Positions 26,685 through 58,925 of a stretch of 64,000 nt of DNA are shown in pieces. Within the stretch, counting starts at the first letter, position 1, and each line of letters opens with the position of its first letter. Below the pieces are notes generated by a model that saw only the letters and a program-made list of their open reading frames with translations, was not told where the DNA came from and searched no databases. Origin of the DNA: Escherichia phage HX01; sequence record NC_018855.1; one strand, written 5' to 3'. The position numbers were made by a program, and so were the translations under genes.

Positions 26685-27158
26685 ATGTTATTGACTGGCA
26701 AATTATATAAAGAAGAAAAACAGAAATTTTATAATGCACAAAACGGTAAATGCTTAATTTGCCAACGAGAACTAAATCCTGATGTTCAAGCTAATCACCT
26801 TGACCATGACCATGAATTAAATGGACCAAAAGCAGGAAAGGTGCGTGGATTGCTCTGTAATCTTTGCAATGCTGCGGAAGGTCAAATGAAGCACAAATTT
26901 AATCGTTCTGGCTTAAAGGGACAAGGTGTTGATTATCTTGAATGGTTGGAAAATTTACTTACTTATTTAAAATCCGATTACACCCAAAATAATATTCACC
27001 CTAACTTCGTTGGAGATAAATCAAAGGAATTTTCTCGTTTAGGAAAAGAGGAAATGATGGCTGAGATGCTTCAAAGAGGATTTGAATATAATGAATCTGA
27101 CACTAAAACACAATTAATAGCTTCATTTAAGAAGCAGCTTAGAAAGAGTTTAAAATGA
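26685..27158 (+). CDS. 49: endonuclease VII (Holliday junction resolvase)
   Basis: 157 aa; MLLTGKLYKEEKQKFY..CLICQREL..HLDHDHELNG..LLCNLCNAAEG matches T4 gp49. Confidence 0.95.
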   Translation: MLLTGKLYKEEKQKFYNAQNGKCLICQRELNPDVQANHLDHDHELNGPKAGKVRGLLCNLCNAAEGQMKHKFNRSGLKGQGVDYLEWLENLLTYLKSDYTQNNIHPNFVGDKSKEFSRLGKEEMMAEMLQRGFEYNESDTKTQLIASFKKQLRKSLK

Positions 27159-28972
27159 CAATTGAAAAAGAAATTGAAGGATTGATTCATAAAACTAATA
27201 AAGACCTTTTGAACGAGAATGCTAATAAAGATTCTCGTGTTTTTCCAACTCAACGGGACCTTATGGCTGGTATTGTGTCTAAGCACATTGCCAAAAATAT
27301 GGTCCCGTCTTTTATTATGAAAGCACATGAAAGCGGAATTATCCATTTCCATGATATTGATTATTCCCCTGCTCTTCCATTTACTAATTGCTGTTTAGTA
27401 GATTTAAAAGGAATGCTTGAAAACGGGTTTAAGCTAGGTAATGCTCAAATTGAAACGCCTAAATCGATTGGTGTTGCTACTGCAATTATGGCACAAATTA
27501 CCGCACAGGTTGCTTCACATCAGTACGGCGGAACGACTTTTGCTAATGTAGATAAAGTACTTTCTCCTTATGTTAAACGCACCTATGCAAAACATATTGA
27601 GGATGCAGAAAAATGGCAAATCGCTGATGCGTTGAATTATGCCCAATCTAAAACAGAAAAAGACGTATACGATGCATTTCAAGCTTATGAGTATGAAGTA
27701 AATACTCTTTTTAGCTCAAACGGTCAAACGCCTTTTGTAACAATTACATTTGGTACTGGAACTGACTGGACTGAACGAATTATTCAGAAAGCAATTCTTA
27801 AAAACCGCATTAAAGGCCTTGGTCGTGATGGAATAACTCCTATTTTCCCTAAACTTGTTATGTTCATTGAAGAGGGTGTCAATCTTTATAAAGACGACCC
27901 GAACTATGATATTAAGCAGCTTGCTCTAGAGTGTGCAAGCAAAAGAATGTATCCTGATATTATTTCAGTTAAGAACAATAAAGCTATCACTGGTTCATCT
28001 ATTCCTGTTTCTCCAATGGGTTGTCGTAGTTTCTTGAGTGTATGGAAAGATTCGACTGGAAATGAAATTCTTGATGGACGTAATAATCTTGGTGTTGTAA
28101 CACTGAATCTTCCTCGTATTGCGTTAGATTCTTATATTGGAACACAATTCAATGAACAGAAATTTGTTGAGCTATTTAATGAACGAATGGATCTGTGTTT
28201 TGAAGCCTTGATGTGTAGAATTAGTTCTTTAAAGGGTGTTAAAGCAACTGTTGCTCCTATTCTTTACCAAGAAGGTGCATTCGGGGTTCGTCTTAAACCT
28301 GATGACGATATAATTGAGTTATTTAAAAACGGTAGAAGTTCAGTGTCCCTAGGATACATTGGTATTCACGAATTGAATATTCTTGTCGGACGTGATATTG
28401 GACAGGAAATTTTGACTAAAATGAATGCTCGTCTTAAGCAGTGGACTGAAAGAACCGGTTTTGCTTTTAGCTTGTATTCTACTCCTGCTGAAAACCTGTG
28501 CTATCGCTTCTGTAAACTTGATACAGAAAAATATGGAAGTGTAAAGGATGTTACTGATAAAGGCTGGTACACTAACAGTTTCCATGTTTCAGTAGAAGAA
28601 AATATCACTCCGTTTGAAAAGATTTCTCGCGAAGCCCCATATCATTTCATTGCGACAGGTGGTCACATTTCTTATGTTGAACTTCCTGATATGAAAAATA
28701 ACCTAAAAGGTCTTGAGGCTGTATGGGATTATGCTGCACAGCATTTAGATTATTTTGGTGTTAATATGCCAGTAGATAAATGTTTTACATGTGGAAGTAC
28801 CCATGAAATGACTCCTACTGAAAACGGATTTGTTTGTTCTATTTGTGGAGAAACTGATCCTAAAAAGATGAACACCATAAGAAGAACATGCGGTTATCTT
28901 GGAAATCCGAACGAACGCGGATTTAATCTCGGCAAAAATAAAGAAATCATGCATAGGGTTAAACACCAATGA
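27155..28972 (+). CDS. nrdD: anaerobic ribonucleoside-triphosphate reductase
   Basis: 605 aa, C-terminal Cys cluster and glycyl-radical region; matches T4 NrdD size and position. Confidence 0.93.
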   Translation: MTIEKEIEGLIHKTNKDLLNENANKDSRVFPTQRDLMAGIVSKHIAKNMVPSFIMKAHESGIIHFHDIDYSPALPFTNCCLVDLKGMLENGFKLGNAQIETPKSIGVATAIMAQITAQVASHQYGGTTFANVDKVLSPYVKRTYAKHIEDAEKWQIADALNYAQSKTEKDVYDAFQAYEYEVNTLFSSNGQTPFVTITFGTGTDWTERIIQKAILKNRIKGLGRDGITPIFPKLVMFIEEGVNLYKDDPNYDIKQLALECASKRMYPDIISVKNNKAITGSSIPVSPMGCRSFLSVWKDSTGNEILDGRNNLGVVTLNLPRIALDSYIGTQFNEQKFVELFNERMDLCFEALMCRISSLKGVKATVAPILYQEGAFGVRLKPDDDIIELFKNGRSSVSLGYIGIHELNILVGRDIGQEILTKMNARLKQWTERTGFAFSLYSTPAENLCYRFCKLDTEKYGSVKDVTDKGWYTNSFHVSVEENITPFEKISREAPYHFIATGGHISYVELPDMKNNLKGLEAVWDYAAQHLDYFGVNMPVDKCFTCGSTHEMTPTENGFVCSICGETDPKKMNTIRRTCGYLGNPNERGFNLGKNKEIMHRVKHQ

Positions 28973-29439
28973 ATTATGATAGATTTTATCCTTGCGATTT
29001 TGTGAATGGCCCTGGTTGCAGGGTCGTTCTTTTCGTTACAGGTTGTTTGCATAAATGCGAAGGGTGTTATAATAAATCAACATGGAACGCTAGAAATGGT
29101 ATTCCATTCACGGGTGAAACACTGGAACAATTAATTGAATGTTTGAATAATGATTATATAGAAGGATTAACTATAACTGGAGGAGACCCTCTCTATCCTG
29201 ATAACCGAGATGTTGTTCATTGCATTGTTCAAACAGTAAAAAATCTTTATCAAAATAAAAGCATTTGGTTGTGGACAGGATATAAGTTTGAAGATATTAA
29301 ACAACTAGAAATGCTTAAATATGTTGATGTTATTATTGATGGGAAGTATGAGAAAAATCTTCCGACCAAAAAACTGTGGCGAGGATCAGATAATCAGCGA
29401 CTTTGGTCAAATACCGATGGGGTGTGGAAACATGATTAA
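28969..29439 (+). CDS. nrdG: anaerobic RNR activating enzyme (radical SAM)
   Basis: CDFVNGPGCRVVLFVTGCLHKCEGCYN; ATGA-coupled to nrdD. Confidence 0.92.
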   Translation: MNYDRFYPCDFVNGPGCRVVLFVTGCLHKCEGCYNKSTWNARNGIPFTGETLEQLIECLNNDYIEGLTITGGDPLYPDNRDVVHCIVQTVKNLYQNKSIWLWTGYKFEDIKQLEMLKYVDVIIDGKYEKNLPTKKLWRGSDNQRLWSNTDGVWKHD

Positions 29440-41064: not shown

Positions 41065-43776
41065 ATGAAAGAATTTTACTTAACGGTTGAACAGATTGGT
41101 GATTCAATTTTTGAACGTTACATCGATTCTAACGGCCGTGAACGTACTCGTGAAGTAGAATATAAACCATCACTGTTTGCTCATTGCCCGGAAAGTCAGG
41201 CTACGAAATATTTCGATATCTACGGTAAGCCGTGTACTCGTAAGTTGTTCGCCAATATGCGTGATGCCTCCCAATGGATTAAACGCATGGAAGATATCGG
41301 ACTTGAAGCACTTGGCATGGACGATTTCAAATTGGCGTATTTGTCTGACACTTATAACTATGAAATCAAATACGACCATACAAAAATTCGTGTGGCTAAC
41401 TTCGACATCGAAGTAACATCTCCAGACGGGTTCCCTGAGCCGTCACAAGCAAAACATCCGATTGATGCTATCACTCATTATGACTCAATTGACGACAGGT
41501 TCTACGTATTTGATCTATTGAATTCTCCATACGGTAATGTAGAAGAATGGTCTATTGAAATCGCTGCTAAGCTTCAAGAACAAGGCGGTGATGAAGTTCC
41601 ATCCGAAATTATCGATAAAATCATTTATATGCCGTTCGATAACGAAAAAGAATTGTTGATGGAATATCTCAACTTCTGGCAACAGAAAACTCCTGTCATT
41701 TTGACTGGATGGAACGTTGAGTCATTTGATATTCCGTATGTGTATAACCGAATCAAGAATATTTTTGGCGAATCCACAGCAAAACGGTTGTCACCACATC
41801 GTAAAACTCGTGTTAAAGTTATCGAAAACATGTATGGTTCTCGTGAAATCATTACATTGTTCGGTATCTCTGTTCTTGATTACATTGACCTTTACAAAAA
41901 ATTCTCTTTTACCAATCAACCGTCATATTCTCTGGATTACATTTCAGAATTTGAATTGAACGTTGGTAAACTGAAATATGACGGCCCTATTTCTAAGCTT
42001 CGTGAAAGCAATCACCAACGATATATTTCTTATAACATTATCGACGTGTATCGTGTATTGCAAATTGATGCTAAACGTCAGTTCATTAACTTGAGCTTGG
42101 ACATGGGTTATTATGCTAAGATACAGATTCAATCTGTGTTTAGCCCAATTAAAACATGGGATGCTATTATTTTTAATAGCCTTAAAGAGCAGAACAAGGT
42201 GATTCCACAAGGTCGTTCTCACCCGGTTCAACCTTATCCCGGCGCTTTTGTTAAGGAACCTATTCCAAATCGATACAAATATGTAATGAGTTTCGACCTT
42301 ACATCTCTGTATCCAAGTATTATTCGCCAAGTGAATATTAGCCCAGAAACAATAGCAGGAACGTTTAAAGTAGCTCCATTGCATGATTATATTAACGCTG
42401 TTGCTGAACGTCCTTCTGATGTGTACAGTTGTTCTCCTAACGGCATGATGTATTATAAAGATCGTGATGGTGTAGTTCCAACTGAAATCACTAAGGTCTT
42501 TAATCAACGTAAAGAACATAAAGGTTACATGCTTGCAGCTCAACGTAATGGTGAAATAATTAAAGAGGCATTGCATAATCCTAATCTTTCTGTTGACGAA
42601 CCATTAGATGTTGATTATCGTTTCGACTTCAGTGATGAGATTAAAGAAAAGATTAAAAAGTTGTCTGCTAAATCTCTTAATGAAATGTTGTTTAGAGCTC
42701 AACGTACTGAAGTTGCAGGTATGACTGCCCAAATTAACCGTAAATTGCTTATCAACTCACTTTATGGTGCACTTGGCAACGTTTGGTTCCGTTATTATGA
42801 TTTGCGTAATGCTACTGCAATCACAACATTCGGGCAAATGGCTTTACAGTGGATTGAACGTAAAGTTAATGAATATCTGAATGAAGTTTGTGGCACAGAA
42901 GGTGAAGCTTTCGTTCTTTATGGTGATACAGACTCTATTTACGTATCTGCTGATAAAATTATCGATAAGGTTGGTGAATCTAAATTCCGTGATACCAACC
43001 ATTGGGTAGACTTCTTAGATAAGTTTGCACGTGAACGTATGGAACCAGCTATTGATAGAGGTTTCCGTGAAATGTGTGAATACATGAACAATAAACAACA
43101 CTTAATGTTCATGGACCGAGAAGCTATCGCTGGGCCTCCACTCGGTTCTAAAGGTATTGGTGGATTCTGGACTGGTAAGAAACGTTATGCATTAAACGTG
43201 TGGGATATGGAAGGAACCAGATACGCCGAACCTAAGCTTAAAATCATGGGTCTAGAGACTCAGAAATCTTCGACTCCTAAAGCAGTACAGAAAGCTCTTA
43301 AAGAATGTATTCGTCGTATGCTTCAGGAAGGCGAAGAATCATTACAAGAATATTTTAAAGAGTTTGAAAAAGAATTCCGTCAATTGAATTATATTAGCAT
43401 CGCGTCGGTATCTTCTGCGAATAACATTGCTAAATATGATGTAGGTGGATTCCCTGGTCCTAAATGCCCGTTCCATATTCGTGGAATTCTGACGTATAAC
43501 CGGGCTATCAAAGGTAATATCGATGCACCGCAAGTTGTAGAAGGTGAAAAAGTATATGTTCTGCCTTTACGTGAAGGAAACCCATTCGGTGATAAATGTA
43601 TCGCATGGCCTTCTGGTACTGAAATCACAGATTTAATTAAAGACGACGTACTTCATTGGATGGACTACACTGTTCTCCTTGAGAAGACATTTATTAAACC
43701 ACTTGAAGGATTCACATCAGCAGCGAAACTCGATTACGAGAAGAAAGCATCTCTGTTCGATATGTTCGATTTTTGA
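41065..43776 (+). CDS. 43: DNA polymerase gp43 (family B)
   Basis: 903 aa; exonuclease and polymerase motifs (YGDTDS); N-terminus matches my recollection of RB69 gp43. Confidence 0.97.
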   Translation: MKEFYLTVEQIGDSIFERYIDSNGRERTREVEYKPSLFAHCPESQATKYFDIYGKPCTRKLFANMRDASQWIKRMEDIGLEALGMDDFKLAYLSDTYNYEIKYDHTKIRVANFDIEVTSPDGFPEPSQAKHPIDAITHYDSIDDRFYVFDLLNSPYGNVEEWSIEIAAKLQEQGGDEVPSEIIDKIIYMPFDNEKELLMEYLNFWQQKTPVILTGWNVESFDIPYVYNRIKNIFGESTAKRLSPHRKTRVKVIENMYGSREIITLFGISVLDYIDLYKKFSFTNQPSYSLDYISEFELNVGKLKYDGPISKLRESNHQRYISYNIIDVYRVLQIDAKRQFINLSLDMGYYAKIQIQSVFSPIKTWDAIIFNSLKEQNKVIPQGRSHPVQPYPGAFVKEPIPNRYKYVMSFDLTSLYPSIIRQVNISPETIAGTFKVAPLHDYINAVAERPSDVYSCSPNGMMYYKDRDGVVPTEITKVFNQRKEHKGYMLAAQRNGEIIKEALHNPNLSVDEPLDVDYRFDFSDEIKEKIKKLSAKSLNEMLFRAQRTEVAGMTAQINRKLLINSLYGALGNVWFRYYDLRNATAITTFGQMALQWIERKVNEYLNEVCGTEGEAFVLYGDTDSIYVSADKIIDKVGESKFRDTNHWVDFLDKFARERMEPAIDRGFREMCEYMNNKQHLMFMDREAIAGPPLGSKGIGGFWTGKKRYALNVWDMEGTRYAEPKLKIMGLETQKSSTPKAVQKALKECIRRMLQEGEESLQEYFKEFEKEFRQLNYISIASVSSANNIAKYDVGGFPGPKCPFHIRGILTYNRAIKGNIDAPQVVEGEKVYVLPLREGNPFGDKCIAWPSGTEITDLIKDDVLHWMDYTVLLEKTFIKPLEGFTSAAKLDYEKKASLFDMFDF

Positions 43777-43816: not shown

Positions 43817-44452
43817 ATGAAAACTACTCCTATTACTATCGCTATTGACGCAATCATAAAACAAGCTTCTTCTTTGGTCGCTATGGCCAAAGTAATTAGT
43901 CAAAACCCTGCTCGTTATAATGCTATTCTAGAAACTCTTCGACGCCCAGGACTTAGTAATTATGAAAGCCGAGTAATTATTACAGGTGTTGGTAAGAATG
44001 CTAATATTGCAACTAAAGCTTCTGAGACATTTGCTTCACTCGGTATCCCGAGTATGTACTTGAACACTGGACATTATTCTCACGGTGATGCAGGATTCAT
44101 TGCGCCTAATGATGTGTTGATTCATATTAGTCGTTCTGGTAAAACTGAAGAAATGATAGGCGTGGCTAAGCATCTTAAAATGATTCGTCCGAACGTCAAA
44201 CAGATTCTGTTGCATTGTAACCCGGACATTCCACAAGAATACGAAGCTCTTTTTGATTATACGTTCTGTACAGGCATCGCAGTAGAGGTTGATGAGAATT
44301 CTCTGGCTCCGACCATGTCCACTACATTGTTGTTAGCGCTTATCGATACGTTTGCTATCAACCTTTCGTCTGAACGTGGATTTACCTCTAATGACTTCCT
44401 TAAGTTCCACCCTGGCGGTGCACTAGGTGCCATGTTACGAGGCGAACAATGA
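43817..44452 (+). CDS. SIS-domain sugar-phosphate isomerase (arabinose-5-phosphate isomerase / phosphoheptose isomerase-like)
   Basis: ITGVGKNANIATKASETF and HISRSGKTEE match SIS-domain signatures. Confidence 0.75.
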   Translation: MKTTPITIAIDAIIKQASSLVAMAKVISQNPARYNAILETLRRPGLSNYESRVIITGVGKNANIATKASETFASLGIPSMYLNTGHYSHGDAGFIAPNDVLIHISRSGKTEEMIGVAKHLKMIRPNVKQILLHCNPDIPQEYEALFDYTFCTGIAVEVDENSLAPTMSTTLLLALIDTFAINLSSERGFTSNDFLKFHPGGALGAMLRGEQ

Positions 44453-44592
44453 AAGCAATAACAATAGGACTTTTACTATTGATGCTTGTCATGACTATCT
44501 ACTGGAGCTTAACGACTCCAGTAATGATTCCGACTCTTATAATCGGATGGATTATGATTGGACTACAAGCAAAGTATGAATGCTTTAACTAG
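44449..44592 (+). CDS. 47-aa membrane peptide
   Basis: ATGA-coupled to SIS gene; two hydrophobic stretches; read manually. Confidence 0.4.
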   Translation: MKAITIGLLLLMLVMTIYWSLTTPVMIPTLIIGWIMIGLQAKYECFN

Positions 44593-44633
44593 AATAGTGT
44601 ACAATACTCCTACTTACCAATGAGGACCACAAC

Positions 44634-46319
44634 ATGAAAAAAGCTGTTATTCTTGGTGCTGGACTGGCAACTCGTTTGTATCCAATAACGCATCATATTC
44701 CTAAGGTGCTTGTTAACTATAAACAAGACACTATTCTGAGCAATTTGTATACAATTTATTCTGACCTTGGCGCAGATGAAATTATTGTAGTAGTTCATTC
44801 AAAATTTGCTGAAACTGTTCGAGCTTATTGTGAGCAAGAAGGGTTCAATGTGACTATTCGTACAGTTGATGAAGCGTATGGTTCTGCTTATGCTCTTGCT
44901 AAATTGCACAAAGATTTAGACGGCCATAATGTAATTGTTAACTGGTGTGATATTATTCCTGATTTTGGTTCATGGTCTTGGAATGTTAACGCAATCTATG
45001 TTAAAGGTGACGAATGTCGATATAATTTCGACGGTGAAAATATCACTAACGTAGGTTCAACAGGTGGTAATGTTGTAGGAATTTATCAGTTCAAAGACTG
45101 GGAATTCTATATGGGTTCTACCGATGAGGAAATTCATGAATACTGCAAAGGACGTGATTTCGTAGAATTCCTTTACGGCAGTGCATTCAATAAATCAGAG
45201 CTTATGAATCTAATTGATTTAGGTGATATGCCTAAACTTGAAAAGGCTCATGAAGTTCGTGAACTTAATCGTAGTTTTAATGCCGTTGAAATTGGTGAAG
45301 AAACTGTAACTAAATTCGCATTAACCGAACAAGGCCGAGCTCTTCAGAAAGATGAGATTTCATGGTATCTTAAAGTGAAATCAGATTCAGTTCCTCAGTT
45401 AGTTTCTGTTAATGAAAATAACTTTGAAATGGAACGCATTAAAGGTAAGCCGGCATTTGAATATATTAAATCCAAATCGAGTCTTGCTCGTCCACAAATT
45501 GTTGATGCAATTTTAGATGCACTGAAATTCAGCACAGACACTTATTTTGTAAGTCCTGAAACTGTTCGTCGTGATTTCACTAAAGAATTCTATACTAAAG
45601 TTATTGATCGTTGTGAAAGTATTCAACCATTGATTGATTCATTTGGTAAAATCACACATGTGAACTACACTAAGATTGGGCGTCTGAAGCCAATGTTGAA
45701 ACAAGCTTTAGAACACCTTATTCGTTATCATAACCGTTCTCAGGGACAGTACTCTGTTATTCATGGTGACCCGAACTTCAGTAATACTATGATTACTGAT
45801 AATGGTGAAGTCAAGTTTATCGACCCTCGTGGATATTTTGGTGAAACCAAGATTTATGGACCAAAATTGTACGACGAAGCTAAAGTGCTTTATGCTGTTT
45901 CAGGTTATGATGAATTCAACGCTAATCCGACCTGGGGACAGTTTACTATTGACGAAACAACTTGTAATGTGTCTATTAACATCAATCCATTAGTTTACAA
46001 ATATGGAAAGATGAGTTCGTTTAACGAGTATCATCATTTGGCAGTGGCAATTATCTGGATTGCATTAGGTGGTTATTTCAAGAATAATCCACTTAAAGCG
46101 GTAGCCGCATATTATAAAGGTATGGAACTTCTGACTAAGCAATTACGTAACATGGGCCGTGTACTTCAGGACGGCTCTATTAGTTATGACGTAGCAGAAC
46201 CTGTAACGGCTACTCTGATTACAAAAAATCCTGGTAAATGGGTACTAACTGATAAAGAAACTGGTGTTTCCTATCGTCCAATCGGTGGCGATATCACTCA
46301 TCAATGGGAACGAATCTAA
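44634..46319 (+). CDS. bifunctional sugar-1-phosphate nucleotidyltransferase / sugar kinase
   Basis: N-terminal GAGLATRLYPITHHIPKVL (G-x-G-T-R-x-x-P motif); C-terminal HGDPNFSNTMI and FIDPRGYFG (APH/ChoK-like kinase motifs). Confidence 0.75.
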   Translation: MKKAVILGAGLATRLYPITHHIPKVLVNYKQDTILSNLYTIYSDLGADEIIVVVHSKFAETVRAYCEQEGFNVTIRTVDEAYGSAYALAKLHKDLDGHNVIVNWCDIIPDFGSWSWNVNAIYVKGDECRYNFDGENITNVGSTGGNVVGIYQFKDWEFYMGSTDEEIHEYCKGRDFVEFLYGSAFNKSELMNLIDLGDMPKLEKAHEVRELNRSFNAVEIGEETVTKFALTEQGRALQKDEISWYLKVKSDSVPQLVSVNENNFEMERIKGKPAFEYIKSKSSLARPQIVDAILDALKFSTDTYFVSPETVRRDFTKEFYTKVIDRCESIQPLIDSFGKITHVNYTKIGRLKPMLKQALEHLIRYHNRSQGQYSVIHGDPNFSNTMITDNGEVKFIDPRGYFGETKIYGPKLYDEAKVLYAVSGYDEFNANPTWGQFTIDETTCNVSININPLVYKYGKMSSFNEYHHLAVAIIWIALGGYFKNNPLKAVAAYYKGMELLTKQLRNMGRVLQDGSISYDVAEPVTATLITKNPGKWVLTDKETGVSYRPIGGDITHQWERI

Positions 46320-46705
46320 TGCACCGTGTAGAAAACATGCTTAATCTTTGTTTTGATGTCGATGATTGTATAACAGAGTGGAATAACAACCGTGATTACG
46401 TGAACTTCAAACCAGACGTCGAAATGGTGACTGCCATTAATGCCCTGTACGATGCAGGGCATACCATAACGCTTTACACTGCTCGCGGTATGAAGTCAGT
46501 CGGTCCTGGTCGTATAGCAATTGACATTCTCCCAAGTCTGATTCAGAACTTGGCAAACATTGGATTGAAGTACCATAATTTGCTAACACATAAACCAGTA
46601 TATGATTGGATTATCGACGACAAAGCTATGCGTCCTGACGAATTCAAAGCTCTTATGAATAAAGGCGAATTCGAAACATTTAAATCATATAAACCGAATC
46701 TATAA
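46319..46705 (+). CDS. HAD-superfamily phosphatase
   Basis: Motif I FDVDDCIT; TAATG-coupled start at 46319. Confidence 0.65.
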   Translation: MHRVENMLNLCFDVDDCITEWNNNRDYVNFKPDVEMVTAINALYDAGHTITLYTARGMKSVGPGRIAIDILPSLIQNLANIGLKYHNLLTHKPVYDWIIDDKAMRPDEFKALMNKGEFETFKSYKPNL

Positions 46706-46762
46706 TAATTTAAGTAAGACCTGCAAAAACCATCGCGTCAATTAACGTGAGATGCAAAAAAA

Positions 46763-47923
46763 ATGAATACTTTTAAAATCGGAACGAATTTTGATTTAGC
46801 TCTTCTTGATAAAATCGTAGAGCTCAATAAAACTTATCCTAATAGCTTGATAAACGAAGTATACGGCTCTACAAGAGAAATGGCTTTTGTAGCAGCCAGA
46901 CCTGATTTTAGGCTTCCTGACGTTGACAAAAAGATGTTAGAAGATTATGTTAAACGTTGTAACGAATTAGGTATTTGCTTTAACTATACACTCAACACGA
47001 TAAATCCTGGTTCAAAAAGAGAACTAGTTGAGTGGAAGAAGAAAGCTATTCAGGATTATGTTCAGTATCTTTGGTCAATAGGCGTATGGCGTATTACTAT
47101 CGCTAACCCTGTTGTTATGGAAATTGTTCGTGAAGTCAATAAAGACATTGAGATTGAAGTTTCAACAATTCTACATGTCGATGCTGTAACTCAAATCAAA
47201 TACTTGCATGACCAATATAATATCAAAAAGGTCTGCTGTGGAATTCATAAGAACCGTTCAGTTTCTTTCCTGAAACGTGCAGCAGAGTTTTGTAATAAGA
47301 ACAATATAATATTTGAAGTTCTTGTAAATGAGTTCTGTTCTAATGCTGGTAAAGGGTACACAACACATTGTAGCTATCGTGACTCTTGCTATATTTTCCA
47401 TAGCACCGATGTTACAGTAGATGATGCCAAATCCTTAAATGGATATCCAATGCAACACTGTATTAAAGCTCGTGATACAGATCCATTTAACTGGTTGAGA
47501 ACTCGTTTTGTTCGTCCTCAAGATTTGAAACTTTATAATGATATTGGTATCACTCAATTTAAAGTTTCGGGACGTACAGGTAGCACAGACTACATTTTGA
47601 AAGTTCTTGAAGCTTATGCTTCTGAAAAGTTTGAAGGCAATTTGTTGGAATTGTGGAAGCCTTTAGAGACCATTTTCACTCTTGAAAATGAGACCGAGTT
47701 TTCACATACAGTAAATATTGAAACCTCTTTGTTAGACGGCTTTTTAGAAAAAAGGTGGTTCAAACATCCAGATTTCGATTGTGCTAATGAAATCTGCGGG
47801 ACGACGTGTACATATTGTGAAAGATATTATAAACGTCAGTTATCTAAAAATGGGTTATCAGAAAACTCTATATCTATTATTGATATAACTAACTCTGATG
47901 ACGCTTTGAGGTACCCAGAATGA
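46763..47923 (+). CDS. peptidase-U32-family-like protein with Cys cluster
   Basis: FKVSGRTGS resembles the U32 LKIEGRTKS motif; EFCSNAGKGYTTHCSYRDSC and C-terminal CANEICGTTCTYC. Confidence 0.5.
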   Translation: MNTFKIGTNFDLALLDKIVELNKTYPNSLINEVYGSTREMAFVAARPDFRLPDVDKKMLEDYVKRCNELGICFNYTLNTINPGSKRELVEWKKKAIQDYVQYLWSIGVWRITIANPVVMEIVREVNKDIEIEVSTILHVDAVTQIKYLHDQYNIKKVCCGIHKNRSVSFLKRAAEFCNKNNIIFEVLVNEFCSNAGKGYTTHCSYRDSCYIFHSTDVTVDDAKSLNGYPMQHCIKARDTDPFNWLRTRFVRPQDLKLYNDIGITQFKVSGRTGSTDYILKVLEAYASEKFEGNLLELWKPLETIFTLENETEFSHTVNIETSLLDGFLEKRWFKHPDFDCANEICGTTCTYCERYYKRQLSKNGLSENSISIIDITNSDDALRYPE

Positions 47924-48000
47924 TTTCTAGAAAAACTTTTAACCACCAACTTAACGAAGAGATTTTGACTATTAAAATTAACAGCAACGAACAAATTCTT

Positions 48001-48025
48001 AAAAAGGCCCATAAGGGCCTTTTTG
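48001..48025 (+). terminator. possible terminator
   Basis: AAAAAGGCCC-ATAA-GGGCCTTTTT; lies inside a possible 51-aa ORF. Confidence 0.4.
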
Positions 48026-48161
48026 AAACTAAAGCGGCTAAAGTGATTAAAGAACCTGTTCAACTAGAATACTAAGCCGAAGCTCTACGTTATATCAACA
48101 TCGCTAAGAAATTCAAATAAGCTTTATGAATTGAGTATATAATAACTGTATTGAGGTAAAC

Positions 48162-48878
48162 ATGGGAAAACATAACACAATGAAATATATTAAAGCCGCA
48201 GATTTTCAATCCGCATTTAAAGCTGTCAATCGTGAAATTTTAGAAAATCCACAGTTCATTACTGATTCTCGTATTGGACGTTGTAATGAAATTGGGTCTA
48301 TGACAGTAGTTGTTGATACCCCTTCATCATTCAAAATGACCGACCCACGTATTAATCGCATCTCTTATGAATATGCTGAAGATTTCTGGAAATTTATGAT
48401 TTCTGGTGGTACTGATGCAAAAGAAGCATTTAAGGCATATCCTAACGTCGCTAAATTTATTTCTAAACCTAAATCAGACGCTTTGCCTGCAAACTTCAAC
48501 ACTTTCTATGGTCCACGAATTGCGGCCCAGTTACCAACTCTTCTAAAAGAACTTAAAGAAAAACCTAACTCTCGAAGAGTTGTGTTCCAAATTCTAGAAA
48601 GTTCTGATCAGGCTTTGCTTGATTCAGACGAAACACTTGAATATCCATGTACTGACTCAGTGACTTATTATATTCGTGATGGTAAGCTTTATACCCACTG
48701 TCATATGCGTTCTCAGAACTGTGCTGTTGTTATGCAGTTGGATTTTTATCTCCAAGGAAAATTACTTCATTATATCGCTAACGAATGTGGTGTAGAAGTT
48801 GGTGATTATACTCATACCATGGTAAGTGCCCATGTGTTTGAACGTGATTTTGATTATGTTAAAGGATTCCTTGACTAA
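48162..48878 (+). CDS. 42: thymidylate-synthase-fold pyrimidine hydroxymethylase (gene 42-like, divergent)
   Basis: RRVVFQI, PCTDSVTYYIRDGKLYTHCHMRSQN, QLDF align to TS / dCMP-hydroxymethylase core motifs, with Asp at the cytosine-specificity position. Confidence 0.65.
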   Translation: MGKHNTMKYIKAADFQSAFKAVNREILENPQFITDSRIGRCNEIGSMTVVVDTPSSFKMTDPRINRISYEYAEDFWKFMISGGTDAKEAFKAYPNVAKFISKPKSDALPANFNTFYGPRIAAQLPTLLKELKEKPNSRRVVFQILESSDQALLDSDETLEYPCTDSVTYYIRDGKLYTHCHMRSQNCAVVMQLDFYLQGKLLHYIANECGVEVGDYTHTMVSAHVFERDFDYVKGFLD

Positions 48879-49777
48879 TGGCTATTTTCCGCGTACCTAT
48901 TTTGAGTATGCGGTCTTATGAAACTGGACAGTATGCTATCCTTAAGGATGGCAACTTCCAACTTCATTTGCACCGTGCTAATCCGGGTGATGTGATTACA
49001 TATCCACGTAATGCATCTGATATTAAAGAATGTGAACGTCTTTTCCCAGAATTTAAGTTTGTTCCATTATGGTATAAAGATAACGCATATAACACTCGTA
49101 AATATTTCTGGTCTGAAAATGAATTTGTGGTTGATTCATTAATTGATTATTATGATTGTGATTTTCTAATCACAGATATCACTGGATATGACGGCACTTT
49201 TGACGTAGAATTCAATTTCAATATCACTGCAGACCCTAATAAACCACGTTTTTATATTGACGAATTCTTAAAAACCGACATGTTGTCTGTTAATCGTTCA
49301 CTTCAAACTACTGTGTTGAATGAACGTCAAAAAGAAGTGCTGGTTAACGCAGGTGCAGATGGTAATAAGATTATCGTAACGCAGAAAGTTATACGTCCTT
49401 CCATCATGCAGCGTCTTGTAGGTGATTTGGCCCCTATTCATCTAGATGGTATTTTTCATCCATTTCGAATTAGTGACCCGTGTTATCGTTTTGAACAAGT
49501 GGTTGAATGCGCAATTCAATTAGGTCAACCGCTTTATATAACCGATCCAAATAATAGCTTCGACAGAAATAAGTATCCTGAAGAAGCACTGATTCGAATT
49601 TTTAAACCAACTAAAACTGAGTACTATCAAATTCTTAAAGGAAGACCGAAGATTCAATATTTCGAAAATCCTGAAGAAGTATTCCATCCAGGTCTTGGCG
49701 AGTTCATCTACTTTAACGCTTTAATTTCTTCACCGTATAATATACCTAAATATGAAGATGTCGTAATCGAGGAATAA
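48878..49777 (+). CDS. hypothetical protein; candidate DNA glycosyltransferase by position
   Basis: 299 aa in the slot where T4 has beta-gt; no diagnostic motif recognised. Confidence 0.35.
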   Translation: MAIFRVPILSMRSYETGQYAILKDGNFQLHLHRANPGDVITYPRNASDIKECERLFPEFKFVPLWYKDNAYNTRKYFWSENEFVVDSLIDYYDCDFLITDITGYDGTFDVEFNFNITADPNKPRFYIDEFLKTDMLSVNRSLQTTVLNERQKEVLVNAGADGNKIIVTQKVIRPSIMQRLVGDLAPIHLDGIFHPFRISDPCYRFEQVVECAIQLGQPLYITDPNNSFDRNKYPEEALIRIFKPTKTEYYQILKGRPKIQYFENPEEVFHPGLGEFIYFNALISSPYNIPKYEDVVIEE

Positions 49778-49778
49778 A

Positions 49779-50327
49779 ATGGCTAAAATTATTTTAGTAG
49801 ATGGCCCAGATAATGCTGGTAAAACAACTTTCATTAATGACATAATGGAAATTAGTGAAAGATATGTAAAGATTGATTTCCCTAAACGAACAGTTGATGG
49901 ACGTTTCGATGTTAAGTCTCGAAATGAAGTTGGCTGTTTCGAAACGATGTTGAATTATTTAGACCCTACTAAGATTTATCTGTTAGACCGTGGATATATT
50001 AGTAACTGGGTTTATGGACGTATTCGACAAGATGCGGACTCGGTTCTTGACGTTTATGAACAGGATTATGTTCGTCTTTGCCAAAACCATGATGTGTTCA
50101 CAATTATTTTAACACGTAACGAAATGACTGAAAGTTTTGAAGACGACCTTATTACTTTGTCTTCATTCGGTTTTAATACAGTCATTTCATATTTTGAAGA
50201 GTTTGCAATTCATAACGAAATCCAAACGTATCAATTACTTAATCATGATGGTGCTAACAAAGTTATAGGATTTAATGCAAGCGAACGTAATGGTTTGATT
50301 ACAGAAATTATCAAATGGGCTCGTTAA
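49779..50327 (+). CDS. P-loop kinase (nucleoside/nucleotide or small-molecule kinase-like)
   Basis: Walker A VDGPDNAGKTT, LLDRGY motif. Confidence 0.6.
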   Translation: MAKIILVDGPDNAGKTTFINDIMEISERYVKIDFPKRTVDGRFDVKSRNEVGCFETMLNYLDPTKIYLLDRGYISNWVYGRIRQDADSVLDVYEQDYVRLCQNHDVFTIILTRNEMTESFEDDLITLSSFGFNTVISYFEEFAIHNEIQTYQLLNHDGANKVIGFNASERNGLITEIIKWAR

Positions 50328-50426: not shown

Positions 50427-51599
50427 ATGTCTGATTTAAAATCTCGTCTGATTAAAGCTTCTACTTCTAAAATGACTGCAGACTTGACTAAGTCTAAGCT
50501 GTTTAATAATCGTGATGAAGTCCCTACTCGTATTCCGATGTTGAATATTGCATTAGGTGGTGCACTGAATGCCGGGTTGCAATCAGGCTTAACTATTTTT
50601 GCTGCTCCTTCTAAACACTTTAAAACGTTGTTTGGACTGACCATGGTTGCAGCGTATATGAAGAAATATAAAGATGCAATCTGTTTGTTTTATGACTCAG
50701 AATTCGGTGCTTCGGAATCTTATTTTCGTTCAATGGGTGTTGATTTAGACCGTGTAGTTCATACACCAATTCAGTCAGTCGAACAACTTAAAGTTGATAT
50801 GACTAATCAGCTTGACGCGATTGAACGCGGTGATAAAGTTATTATCTTTATCGATTCAATCGGTAATACTGCATCTAAGAAAGAAACTGAAGATGCATTG
50901 AACGAGAAAGTTGTAGGTGATATGTCTCGTGCTAAGGCACTTAAATCTCTTTTCCGTATTGTGACCCCGTATCTGACTATTAAAGATATTCCGTGTGTTG
51001 CAATTAACCATACCGCAATGGAAATTGGCGGATTGTATCCTAAAGAGATTATGGGCGGTGGTACAGGTATTCTTTATTCTGCTAACACTGTATTCTTTAT
51101 CTCTAAACGTCAGGTTAAAGAAGGTACAGAATTGACCGGTTACGACTTCACGTTGAAAGCAGAAAAATCTCGTACAGTTAAAGAGAAATCTACTTTCCCG
51201 ATCACGGTTAATTTCGATGGTGGTATCGACCCATTCAGTGGCTTGCTAGAAATGGCAACTGAAATCGGTTTTGTGGTTAAGCCTAAAGCTGGTTGGTATG
51301 CTCGTGAATTCCTTGACGAAGAAACAGGTGAAATGATTCGTGAAGAAAAATCATGGCGTGCTAAAGCTACTGATTGTGTAGAATTCTGGGGACCTTTGTT
51401 TAAACACAAACCTTTCCGAGATGCAATTGAAACTAAATATAAACTAGGTGCTATCTCTTCTATTAAAGAAGTTGATGACGCTGTTAACGACCTTATTAAT
51501 TGCAAAGCAACAACTAAAGTTCCGGTTAAAACTTCTGATGCTCCGTCTGCAGCAGATATAGAAAACGACCTTGACGAAATGGAAGATTTCGATGAATAA
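50427..51599 (+). CDS. uvsX: recombinase UvsX (RecA-like)
   Basis: MSDLKSRLIKASTSK...AREFLDEETGEMIREEKSWRAK matches T4 UvsX. Confidence 0.96.
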   Translation: MSDLKSRLIKASTSKMTADLTKSKLFNNRDEVPTRIPMLNIALGGALNAGLQSGLTIFAAPSKHFKTLFGLTMVAAYMKKYKDAICLFYDSEFGASESYFRSMGVDLDRVVHTPIQSVEQLKVDMTNQLDAIERGDKVIIFIDSIGNTASKKETEDALNEKVVGDMSRAKALKSLFRIVTPYLTIKDIPCVAINHTAMEIGGLYPKEIMGGGTGILYSANTVFFISKRQVKEGTELTGYDFTLKAEKSRTVKEKSTFPITVNFDGGIDPFSGLLEMATEIGFVVKPKAGWYAREFLDEETGEMIREEKSWRAKATDCVEFWGPLFKHKPFRDAIETKYKLGAISSIKEVDDAVNDLINCKATTKVPVKTSDAPSAADIENDLDEMEDFDE

Positions 51600-58313: not shown

Positions 58314-58403
58314 AATATCTCCTTAGTTACCTTATTATTTATTACGCTTTATAAAATTAATGTTAGAATTAACTTCTCTTATACTGAATTGAAAGGAAAA
58401 ATA

Positions 58404-58925
58404 ATGGCACACTTTAACGAATGTTCACAACTTATTTCTGGTGTTGATAAAGCAGAAGAAGCTTATTTTAATGCTCTGATTCACGAAGATAAAGACCCAC
58501 TGCAGGTAATGCTTGATATGCAGAAATCTTTACAGGTTCGTCTGGCAAATGACAAGCCTGAACATAACAAACATCCTGATGAATTAGCCACTGCTGGCGA
58601 TGTTGTTGATTGGCTGCGTAATCAGAAAGATTATATTGATGATGAATTCCGTGAACTGCTGACTTCACTTGGTGGTATGAGCAATGGTGAAAAAGCCGCT
58701 AGCTCTGTATGGAAGCCGTGGAAGGCACAACATGCTGAATATCGAAATCGTCGTATCGATGAACTGTCTCCTGAAGACCAGCTTGAAATTAAATTCGAGA
58801 TGATTGATATCCTCCACTTTGTTCTGAATATGTTCCAAGGTCTGGGTCTTTCCGCTGAAGAAATCTTTAAACTGTATTACCTGAAAAACCAACACAACTT
58901 TGAACGCCAGGATAATGGTTACTGA
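58404..58925 (+). CDS. 56: dCTPase/dUTPase gp56 (MazG-like)
   Basis: MAHFNECSQLISGVDKAEEAYFNAL...; position after primase as in T4. Confidence 0.85.
   Translation: MAHFNECSQLISGVDKAEEAYFNALIHEDKDPLQVMLDMQKSLQVRLANDKPEHNKHPDELATAGDVVDWLRNQKDYIDDEFRELLTSLGGMSNGEKAASSVWKPWKAQHAEYRNRRIDELSPEDQLEIKFEMIDILHFVLNMFQGLGLSAEEIFKLYYLKNQHNFERQDNGY

Follow-up and report, generated by a model that had tools for sequence, protein, structure and literature searches.

We analysed a 64,000-nucleotide stretch of DNA from Escherichia phage HX01 (sequence record NC_018855.1), referred to here as the window, and examined the interval between its gp43 DNA polymerase gene (41065-43776, left flank) and uvsX (50427-51599, right flank). 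The interval is very probably the arabinosyl-5-hydroxycytosine (ara-5hoC) DNA hypermodification island of RB69-like phages, and its U32-family protein is a candidate for an oxygen-independent pyrimidine 5-hydroxylase. A preliminary description of the sequence had listed seven genes between DNA polymerase and uvsX, and all seven open reading frames (ORFs) were confirmed on the plus strand at the positions claimed. They are assigned, from left to right, to an arabinose-5-phosphate isomerase consisting of a SIS domain only (43817-44452, 211 amino acids; counterpart of RB69 gp55), a bifunctional kinase and sugar-1-phosphate nucleotidyltransferase (44634-46319, 561 amino acids; RB69 ORF53_52 and HY126 AfhE), a HAD-family phosphatase (46304-46705, 133 amino acids; RB69 gp51 and HY126 AfhF), a putative U32-family protein of the iron-sulfur (Fe-S) type (46763-47923, 386 amino acids; RB69 gp50), a 5-hydroxy-deoxycytidine monophosphate (5-hydroxy-dCMP) synthase of the thymidylate synthase (TS) fold (48162-48878, 238 amino acids; RB69 gp48), a GT-B glycosyltransferase designated GT1 (48878-49777, 299 amino acids; RB69 gp47:46), and a predicted thymidylate-kinase-like P-loop (deoxy)nucleoside monophosphate kinase (49779-50327, 182 amino acids; RB69 gp45). 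An eighth small ORF on the plus strand (47920-48075), missing from the earlier list, lies between the U32 and TS genes and encodes a truncated homolog of RB69 ORF049c (51 amino acids here, 79 in RB69). The motifs GVGKN, SRSGKTEE, and DVDDC were found in the translations, and the earlier protein-family calls (SIS, NTP_transferase, HAD, U32, TS fold, and P-loop kinase) were all upheld by profile searches.

The 6.7-kb interval was 97-98.6% identical at the nucleotide level to approximately 150 Mosigvirus genomes, RB69 and HY126 among them, and its gene order was the same as that of RB69 from gp55 to gp45. By this comparison, the source phage is a Mosigvirus. The GC content was flat over the region, with no compositional island. 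This nucleotide identity and the gene order, together with the TS, HAD, and GT-B matches described below, identify the interval as the ara-5hoC cluster of RB69 and HY126. The core of this system is already published, and the phage is one more Mosigvirus carrying it. RB69 DNA was reported to contain arabinose, and the same gene module was pointed to (Thomas et al. 2018, PMC6024577). Nuclear magnetic resonance (NMR) and mass spectrometry (MS) have since shown that the sugar is ether-linked straight to C5 via 5-hydroxycytosine (Lee et al. 2026, PMC13326640), and the hydroxymethyl ("ara-hmC") assignment of 2018 is now termed erroneous, with the linkage via 5-hydroxycytosine confirmed (PMC13390438). 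Replacement of deoxycytidine (dC) by arabinosylated 5-hydroxy-dC was demonstrated in RB69 and Mosigvirus NP (PMC13326640, PMC13390438). From the 97-98.6% identity, we infer the same replacement in the virion DNA of the phage analysed here. Two further publications on the ara-5hoC pathway, those of He et al. (2026) and Mahler et al. (2025), are cited in PMC13326640. The preliminary description had proposed a phage-made, non-glucose sugar, which is arabinose according to the published RB69 chemistry. Its mention of arabinosyl-hydroxymethylcytosine in RB69 was right in regard to the arabinose (PMC6024577) and wrong in regard to the base, which is 5-hydroxycytosine (PMC13326640, PMC13390438).

The full set of genes for the supply of uridine diphosphate (UDP)-arabinofuranose, comprising the isomerase, the kinase/nucleotidyltransferase, and the HAD phosphatase, was present in the island. 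The SIS isomerase matched the TIGR00393 KpsF/GutQ profile with 112.8 bits and KdsD with 106.8 bits and carried no CBS domains. Its relatives in the PDB were 3etn, 5uqi, and 2xhz (E = 5e-25 to 7e-19), and it was 99% identical to the RB69 protein. On the basis of computational predictions made here and in PMC13326640, it would convert ribulose 5-phosphate into arabinose 5-phosphate. In the 561-residue protein, an NTP_transferase domain was detected at residues 3-99 (39.1 bits; PDB relative 1jyk), and weak APH/fructosamine-kinase-like matches were detected in the C-terminal part at residues 308-409. Both this gene and the GT1 gene are single intact ORFs in the window; the RB69 record (NC_004928.1) splits their counterparts (ORF053c/052c and ORF047c/046c, respectively). 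The splits were attributed to Sanger sequencing errors (PMC6024577), with which the intact ORFs agree. The HAD phosphatase, which contains the DVDDC motif, matched PDB 9IQW (E = 2e-87) and TIGR01689 EcbF-BcbF (49.2 bits). Its gene has two candidate ATG start codons, at 46304, which gives a 16-nucleotide overlap with the upstream gene, and at 46319, which is the start annotated in RB69. The PDB chain 9IQW aligns starting at residue 5 of the longer form. According to He et al. 2026, as cited in PMC13326640, AfhE of HY126 converts arabinose 5-phosphate into arabinose 1,5-bisphosphate, AfhF strips the 5-phosphate to give arabinofuranose 1-phosphate, and AfhE then makes UDP-arabinofuranose from it. 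The bifunctional enzyme and the phosphatase of the window are near-identical to these proteins and would perform the same steps. The earlier proposal of a nucleoside diphosphate (NDP)-pentose made by the phage from ribulose 5-phosphate and arabinose 5-phosphate matches the published pathway, and its free pentose intermediate gives way to arabinose 1,5-bisphosphate in the route that PMC13326640 summarises from He et al. 2026. No SIS arabinose-5-phosphate isomerase was detectable in the clusters of phages Thanatos-2 (locus L013) and VR5 (L011), which presumably rely on the host KdsD/GutQ for arabinose 5-phosphate.

The TS homolog matched Thymidylat_synt with 57.1 bits. It was identical to PDB 9IQC at 236 of 238 residues, and the identity to 9IQC, 9IR2, and 9IQU was 99%. 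The alignment with thymidylate synthase 4dq1 (RSQNCAVVMQLD) gave the substitutions D169N and N177D in E. coli ThyA numbering; L143E was also present, and the YPC motif retained the catalytic Cys146. The residue at ThyA position 169 is thus Asn and not the Asp of the gp42-type dCMP hydroxymethylases, so that the enzyme does not have the T4-type signature. Asn at this position marks the hydroxylase branch (PMC13326640). RB69 gp48 makes 5-hydroxy-dCMP with oxygen derived from 18O2 and carries a loosely bound flavin, and a dNMP kinase of the T4 gp1 type, RB69 gp159, which is encoded elsewhere in the genome, phosphorylates 5-hydroxy-dCMP (PMC13326640). These sequence features indicate that the TS homolog of the window is a flavin- and oxygen-dependent 5-hydroxy-dCMP synthase. 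It would hydroxylate dCMP at C5 with flavin and oxygen, and the phosphorylated product would then enter the DNA.

The preliminary description had read the same protein as a hydroxymethylase making hydroxymethylcytosine. In such a T4-like pathway, a dCMP hydroxymethylase provides hydroxymethylcytosine, and the pentose is activated via free pentose and pentose 1-phosphate. The TS fold, the substitutions N177D and L143E that are shared with T4 gp42, the 2018 MS reading as ara-hmC (PMC6024577), and the wording "Ara5P to Ara to Ara1P", which still stands in Table 1 of PMC13326640, are consistent with that pathway. It is contradicted by D169N and the 99% identity to a crystallised hydroxylase, by the ether link at C5 seen in NMR and MS together with the incorporation of 18O2 (PMC13326640), by the judgement that the hydroxymethyl assignment was erroneous (PMC13390438), and by the 1,5-bisphosphate route adopted in the text of PMC13326640. 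The published NMR and 18O2 data refute the hydroxymethylcytosine pathway for RB69, and for the present island we regard it as hardly credible.

No Pfam or PDB sequence match was obtained for the 299-residue protein, which the preliminary description had left unassigned. Its AlphaFold2 model had a pLDDT of 94.8, and Foldseek matched the model to 9v0w, 3c4q (MshA), 7qsg, and 5ze7 (E = 1e-6 to 2e-5), of which 9v0w and 5ze7 are UDP-Glc:tetrahydrobiopterin glucosyltransferases. Judged from this model, the protein is a GT-B glycosyltransferase. According to computational evidence here and in the literature, it would attach the first, base-proximal arabinose to the 5-hydroxyl group, and a second transferase, a homolog of RB69 gp3, would be located outside the window. 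The data in PMC13326640 do not distinguish attachment of the first arabinose at the nucleotide level from its attachment to DNA. In regards to the P-loop protein, phrog_761 ("thymidylate kinase") was matched with E = 1.3e-44, and a GPDNAGKTT P-loop and a DRGY motif were present. The TIGR00041 match was weak (15.3 bits against a cut-off of 83), and the PDB sequence search gave no match. The kinase gene almost always adjoins GT1, and the two lie side by side in nine of the 18 distant lineages described below. The predicted kinase would phosphorylate the modified dCMP, possibly in an already glycosylated form. A dedicated kinase for a modified and perhaps glycosylated nucleotide would be a reasonable proposal, because gp159 already handles 5-hydroxy-dCMP and the timing of arabinosylation is not distinguished.

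The U32-like protein matched Peptidase_U32 (PF01136) with 42.4 bits against a cut-off of 22.4. A PDB sequence search gave nothing useful. The AlphaFold2 model (pLDDT 92) was a TIM barrel, and its top structural match in the PDB was the U32 protein 5d88. In the alignment with RlhA, E161, C169, and C192 of RlhA corresponded to E185, C192, and C209 of the phage protein, and E185 was invariant in six aligned proteins and nearly invariant across the subfamily. In 56 homologs, down to 46% identity, C158, C177, C192, C203, C209, C233, and H213 were invariant, as was a C-terminal group of C340, C345, C349, and C352. The pattern of the subfamily is C192-x10-C203-x5-C209-x3-H213, and by these alignments we place the protein in a U32 subfamily of its own, whose putative metal site is a variant one. 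It was also the most conserved protein in the neighbourhood when compared with phages Entb_45, CHI14, and Thanatos-2. Its identities to the respective homologs were 87, 84, and 80%, against 80, 74, and 65% for the DNA polymerase, 82, 80, and 71% for the TS homolog, and 68, 60, and 48% for GT1.

The characterised U32 proteins are all linked to oxygen-independent C-H hydroxylation that depends on prephenate and Fe-S (PMC5727448, PMC6599085, PMC10990095). RlhA is needed for 5-hydroxycytidine 2501 of 23S rRNA and requires prephenate and Fe-S cluster biogenesis (PMC5727448). TrhP is the prephenate-dependent, oxygen-independent counterpart of the oxygen-dependent TrhO in the formation of tRNA 5-hydroxyuridine (PMC6599085), and prephenate is the oxygen donor for UbiU/UbiV in anaerobic ubiquinone synthesis (PMC10990095). 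In the literature searched, to which He et al. 2026 and Mahler et al. 2025 did not belong, no paper was found to tie phage U32 or chorismate mutase genes to 5-hydroxycytosine. PMC13326640 makes no remark on gp50 belonging to the U32 family.

In 51 phage genomes from approximately 12 genera, U32 was immediately followed by a gene for a mini AroQ chorismate mutase. These include phages of Klebsiella, Serratia, Yersinia, Enterobacter, Edwardsiella, Erwinia, Pectobacterium, Providencia, Morganella, and Shewanella. The CM_2 scores were 40.9 bits for Entb_45, 44.6 bits for CHI14, and 32.8 bits for Thanatos-2 (Pfam cut-off, 27), and the catalytic residues R8, R25, K36, E49, S71, and Q75 were invariant in the phage enzymes. 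In the Shewanella phage Thanatos-2, the U32-chorismate mutase pair was relocated within the cluster and still kept together. Dhakavirus VR5, Acinetobacter phage Apostate, and Pseudomonas phage PspYZU05 lacked both members of the pair. Delivery of prephenate to carboxymethylation of the CmoA/CmoX type (PMC12783734) was considered as an alternative use and ruled out, since the island encodes no enzyme dependent on S-adenosylmethionine.

We examined the distribution of the U32 gene with tblastn. It was detected in 220 phage records, with identities of at least 80% throughout, and the hosts listed, which leave out seven further genus names with at most three records each, were all Enterobacterales or Shewanella. 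The TS-type hydroxylase was detected in 376 records, including 57 of Acinetobacter phages and 22 of Rhizobium phages as well as phages of Sphingomonas and Tenacibaculum. No U32 gene was detectable by tblastn in the phages of these four genera that carry the TS enzyme, and no U32 homolog was detectable in Pseudomonas phage PspYZU05.

Distant U32 proteins formed a large metagenomic subfamily (44-58% identity) in phage-like contigs, amid genes of deoxynucleotide metabolism that encode dCMP deaminase, dUTPase/dCTPase, thymidylate kinase, deoxynucleoside kinase, and NT5C. All ORFs within 10 kb of U32 were scored with profiles of the island proteins in 47 loci, comprising 15 from Straboviridae and 32 others, the latter corresponding to 18 lineages when the U32 proteins were clustered at 70% identity. 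The TS enzyme was present in 15 of 15 Straboviridae loci and in none of the 18 other lineages. In these 18 lineages, homologs of GT1 were found in 12, of the P-loop kinase in nine, of the nucleotidyltransferase-kinase in six, and of the SIS isomerase in five; chorismate mutase and/or DAHP synthase was found in four, and at least one of these links in 15. Several lineages had compact kinase-GT1-U32 operons in which the stop codon of one gene overlaps the start codon of the next (e.g., L035, L057, and L018), and arabinose-type operons of the order GT1, SIS, nucleotidyltransferase-kinase, (DAHP synthase-chorismate mutase), and U32 were found in L043, L045, L050, and L016. An independent scan of IMG/VR for the TS-type hydroxylase recovered every one of the 15 Straboviridae contigs; of the 26 other contigs with U32, it recovered none. 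Two of the U32 neighbours were fusions of DAHP synthase and a C-terminal chorismate mutase domain that passed the Pfam thresholds, and the neighbour in L016 was a Bacillus-type DAHP synthase (DAHP_synth_1).

Several further observations were made on the neighbours of U32. The two fusions (L054, 11079-12197; L043, 8411-9433) adjoin U32 on contigs of 85-150 kb; in related contigs of jumbo phages, which reach 294 kb (e.g., L049 and L047), a stand-alone chorismate mutase lies beside U32 instead. DAHP synthase and chorismate mutase are enzymes of the shikimate pathway and are unusual in phages. The L016 neighbour was also considered as a KDO-8-P synthase, which would have been a link to arabinose 5-phosphate, and this was rejected on the scores (DAHP synthase, 237 bits; KDO8P synthase, 63 bits). 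Proteins of approximately 250 residues flanking U32 in L006, L009, and L007 were considered as a conserved partner and discarded; they had no family matches and were mutually unrelated. In L017 (4777-13179), the U32 gene overlaps a gene for a TAGT-like DNA glycosyltransferase. Another glycosyltransferase related to it is encoded nearby, as are a dUTPase/dCTP-deaminase-like protein and a UDP-galactopyranose mutase. This gene content suggests galactofuranosyl-5-hydroxypyrimidine DNA made without a TS-type enzyme. L007 (7001-14428) is on a cellular-looking contig with a dockerin/GH43 neighbour and contains two U32 paralogs together with genes for NT5C, a PnuC-like transporter, a deoxynucleoside kinase, a radical-SAM/SPASM enzyme, and a nucleoside 2-deoxyribosyltransferase. 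It may be a different nucleoside-modification cluster.

The known chemistry of the family, the repeated linkage to prephenate supply, and the slot beside GT1 and the kinase together point to an oxygen-independent, prephenate-dependent pyrimidine 5-hydroxylase as the function of the U32-like protein, a reading drawn from context to which we give an even chance or slightly better. The strong conservation of the protein, its Glu and Cys residues aligned with RlhA, its distribution over hosts, and the NrdD and NrdG genes of the window (described below) also count in favour. The enzyme would use Fe-S clusters, take the hydroxyl group from prephenate, and yield the same 5-hydroxypyrimidine nucleotide as the TS-type enzyme, and the adjacent chorismate mutase or DAHP synthase, where encoded, would supply the prephenate. 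It would thereby back up the TS-type enzyme and allow DNA modification during anaerobic growth of the host, when the oxygen-dependent enzyme would be idle. As judged from gene content, phages of aerobes would fill the slot beside GT1 and the kinase with the TS-type enzyme only, many uncultured phages with U32 only, and phages of facultative anaerobes, of which the present phage is one, with both. That there is a phage-borne U32 subfamily acting on a pyrimidine deoxynucleotide, and hence two routes to 5-hydroxypyrimidine DNA, appears to us evenly balanced. The preliminary description had seen no obvious role for the U32-like and P-loop proteins; plausible roles can now be proposed for both, as a hydroxylase and a modified-nucleotide kinase, respectively.

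Several points weigh against the hydroxylase reading. The canonical CX6CX15CX3C motif is not intact in the phage protein, the essential C176 of RlhA being replaced by Gly198 and C196 by His213. The only listing of gp50 in PMC13326640 is in Table 1, as a "sugar or heterocycle reductase", and the protein is absent from the text. No U32 protein has so far been reconstituted in vitro (PMC10990095). The pattern of host lifestyles comes from few, non-independent clades, and no statistic is claimed for it. E. coli Dhakaviruses carry the TS enzyme without U32, which is thus dispensable in some facultative hosts. The window lineage itself has no chorismate mutase; the slot, which contains that gene in most other genera, holds the unrelated truncated ORF, and the lineage would depend on the host PheA/TyrA for prephenate. 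In regards to the metagenomic contigs carrying U32, the whole-contig scan of IMG/VR used motifs specific to this TS subtype, and the neighbour scan covered 10 kb only.

The Table 1 label is also the starting point for a different role, in which U32 would be a reductase or electron-transfer partner that delivers reduced flavin to the TS-type enzyme or reduces a sugar or heterocycle. A TIM barrel with many invariant Cys residues that could hold Fe-S clusters would suit this role, as would the loose binding of flavin by the TS-type enzyme. Such a partner would not be expected to occur with GT1 and the kinase in the 18 lineages that lack a nearby TS-type enzyme, nor to be tied to differing sugar pathways (arabinose, and the UDP-galactopyranose mutase of L017). 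It would also be left unexplained why genes for chorismate mutase or DAHP synthase recur beside U32, and the TS enzyme runs without U32 in Acinetobacter and Pseudomonas phages. We therefore consider a reductase unlikely. In a further reading, the U32-chorismate mutase pair would act on RNA, with U32 as an analogue of TrhP or RlhA that hydroxylates tRNA U34 or rRNA and thereby tunes translation during infection. Besides ubiquinone precursors, tRNA and rRNA are the only known U32 substrates, and T4-like phages carry tRNAs of their own. However, the phage protein has no C-terminal extensions of the TrhP/RlhA kind (386 residues against 453 and 653, respectively), U32 is always inside a DNA-modification cluster, and the distant homologs lie amid deoxynucleotide genes and beside DNA glycosyltransferases, which makes an RNA substrate decidedly improbable. 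The historic family name and the term "peptidase" in RefSeq and PHROGs would make the protein a true collagenase-like peptidase. No proteolytic mechanism is known for the family (PMC5727448), the context is wholly one of nucleotide and sugar metabolism, and the Cys/His pattern is invariant and of a metal-binding type; a peptidase is the least probable of these functions and can scarcely be entertained.

In regards to the other features of the window, the small ORF at 47920-48075 differs from RB69 ORF049c by a 39-bp deletion that leads to a TAA stop codon and shortens the product from 79 to 51 residues. Among 147 matching phage records, the deletion was common only to phage AV117, the sole one-piece alignment over the site. 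By its sequence, the truncated homolog is probably inactivated. RB69 ORF049c was considered as a degenerate chorismate mutase and rejected; it gave no CM_2 match, the hhalign probability was 0.14%, and it belongs to a different PHROG family. A scan of the island for sigma-70 promoters and terminators gave 26 sites against 26.0 expected, which is the chance level. Upstream of the TS-type gene, at 48117-48150, AAGCTTTA is followed after 11 nucleotides by TATAAT, an arrangement that we take to resemble a T4 MotA-box middle promoter. The window also contains plus-strand genes for an NrdD anaerobic ribonucleotide reductase (27155-28972, 605 amino acids; PF13597 NRDD, 570.6 bits) and its NrdG activase (28969-29439, 156 amino acids; Fer4_12, 163 bits, and Radical_SAM), and by this pair of genes the phage is equipped for replication without oxygen. 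A likely dCTPase of the gp56 type is encoded on the plus strand at 58389-58925 (PF08761 dUTPase_2, E = 1.2e-6, matching the C-terminal part only; start codon uncertain). Its gene lies downstream of that for the primase, a position also seen in phage CHI14, and corresponds to RB69 gp28 by inferred map position. The enzyme would exclude unmodified dCTP from phage DNA. Homing endonuclease genes were observed in two of the related phages, a segB-like gene between the HAD and U32 genes of CHI14 (L014, 8352-8990) and a NUMOD3 gene that splits uvsX in PspYZU05 (L015, 10493-13127).

The modification shields phage DNA from restriction enzymes and CRISPR. If the hydroxylase reading is true, it would explain how complete DNA modification remains feasible in an anoxic host for gut phages whose cytosine hydroxylase requires oxygen, and the uncultured phages that carry kinase-GT1-U32 operons without a TS-type enzyme would be likely carriers of glycosylated 5-hydroxypyrimidine DNA. 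The U32 hydroxylases would also gain a small soluble substrate, dCMP, which would make the chemistry of prephenate as an oxygen donor directly testable. The published system retains one extremely conserved component without an assigned role, U32, for which there is now a specific and testable hypothesis.

The island has the same genes in the same order and in the same gp43-uvsX slot as RB69 gp45-gp55 and the Afh cluster of HY126, with strain-level differences only; relative to RB69, these are the 39-bp deletion in the ORF049c homolog and the two genes that are split in the RB69 record and intact here. The slot is also that of T4 gene 42 and the alpha- and beta-glucosyltransferases. T4 shares the logic of dCMP modification by a TS-fold enzyme before replication, the exclusion of dCTP by a dCTPase, and a glycosyltransferase that decorates the new hydroxyl group. 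The island differs from T4 in a hydroxyl instead of a hydroxymethyl group, in D169N, and in the use of flavin and oxygen instead of folate and water; it also differs in a phage-made arabinofuranose instead of host UDP-glucose, in an unrelated GT-B enzyme, and in the additional genes for U32 and the kinase. Acinetobacter phage DLP3 and Rhizobium phage RL38J1 (PMC13326640) share the TS-type synthase, GT1, the kinase, and NDP-sugar genes. These phages of strict aerobes have neither U32 nor chorismate mutase and have extra glycosyltransferases or other sugars. With RlhA and UbiU/UbiV, the phage U32 protein shares the TIM barrel, the conserved Glu, and two of the four motif Cys residues, whereas the identity is 16-21%, the motif is variant, and there is neither a DUF3656 domain nor a UbiT-like partner. 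The C-terminal Cys cluster is in common with RlhA, whose hydroxylation at C5 of cytosine concerns the very carbon and base that are modified in the phage DNA. The E. coli pair TrhP/TrhO offers a parallel for the arrangement proposed here, although the phage substrate would be a deoxynucleotide and the oxygen-dependent partner is a TS-fold flavoenzyme, TrhO being a rhodanese. In E. coli, two unrelated enzymes, one dependent on oxygen and the other on prephenate, make one 5-hydroxypyrimidine, and their reported distribution tracks the oxygen lifestyle of the organism; the phage TS-type and U32 enzymes would resemble them in this respect.

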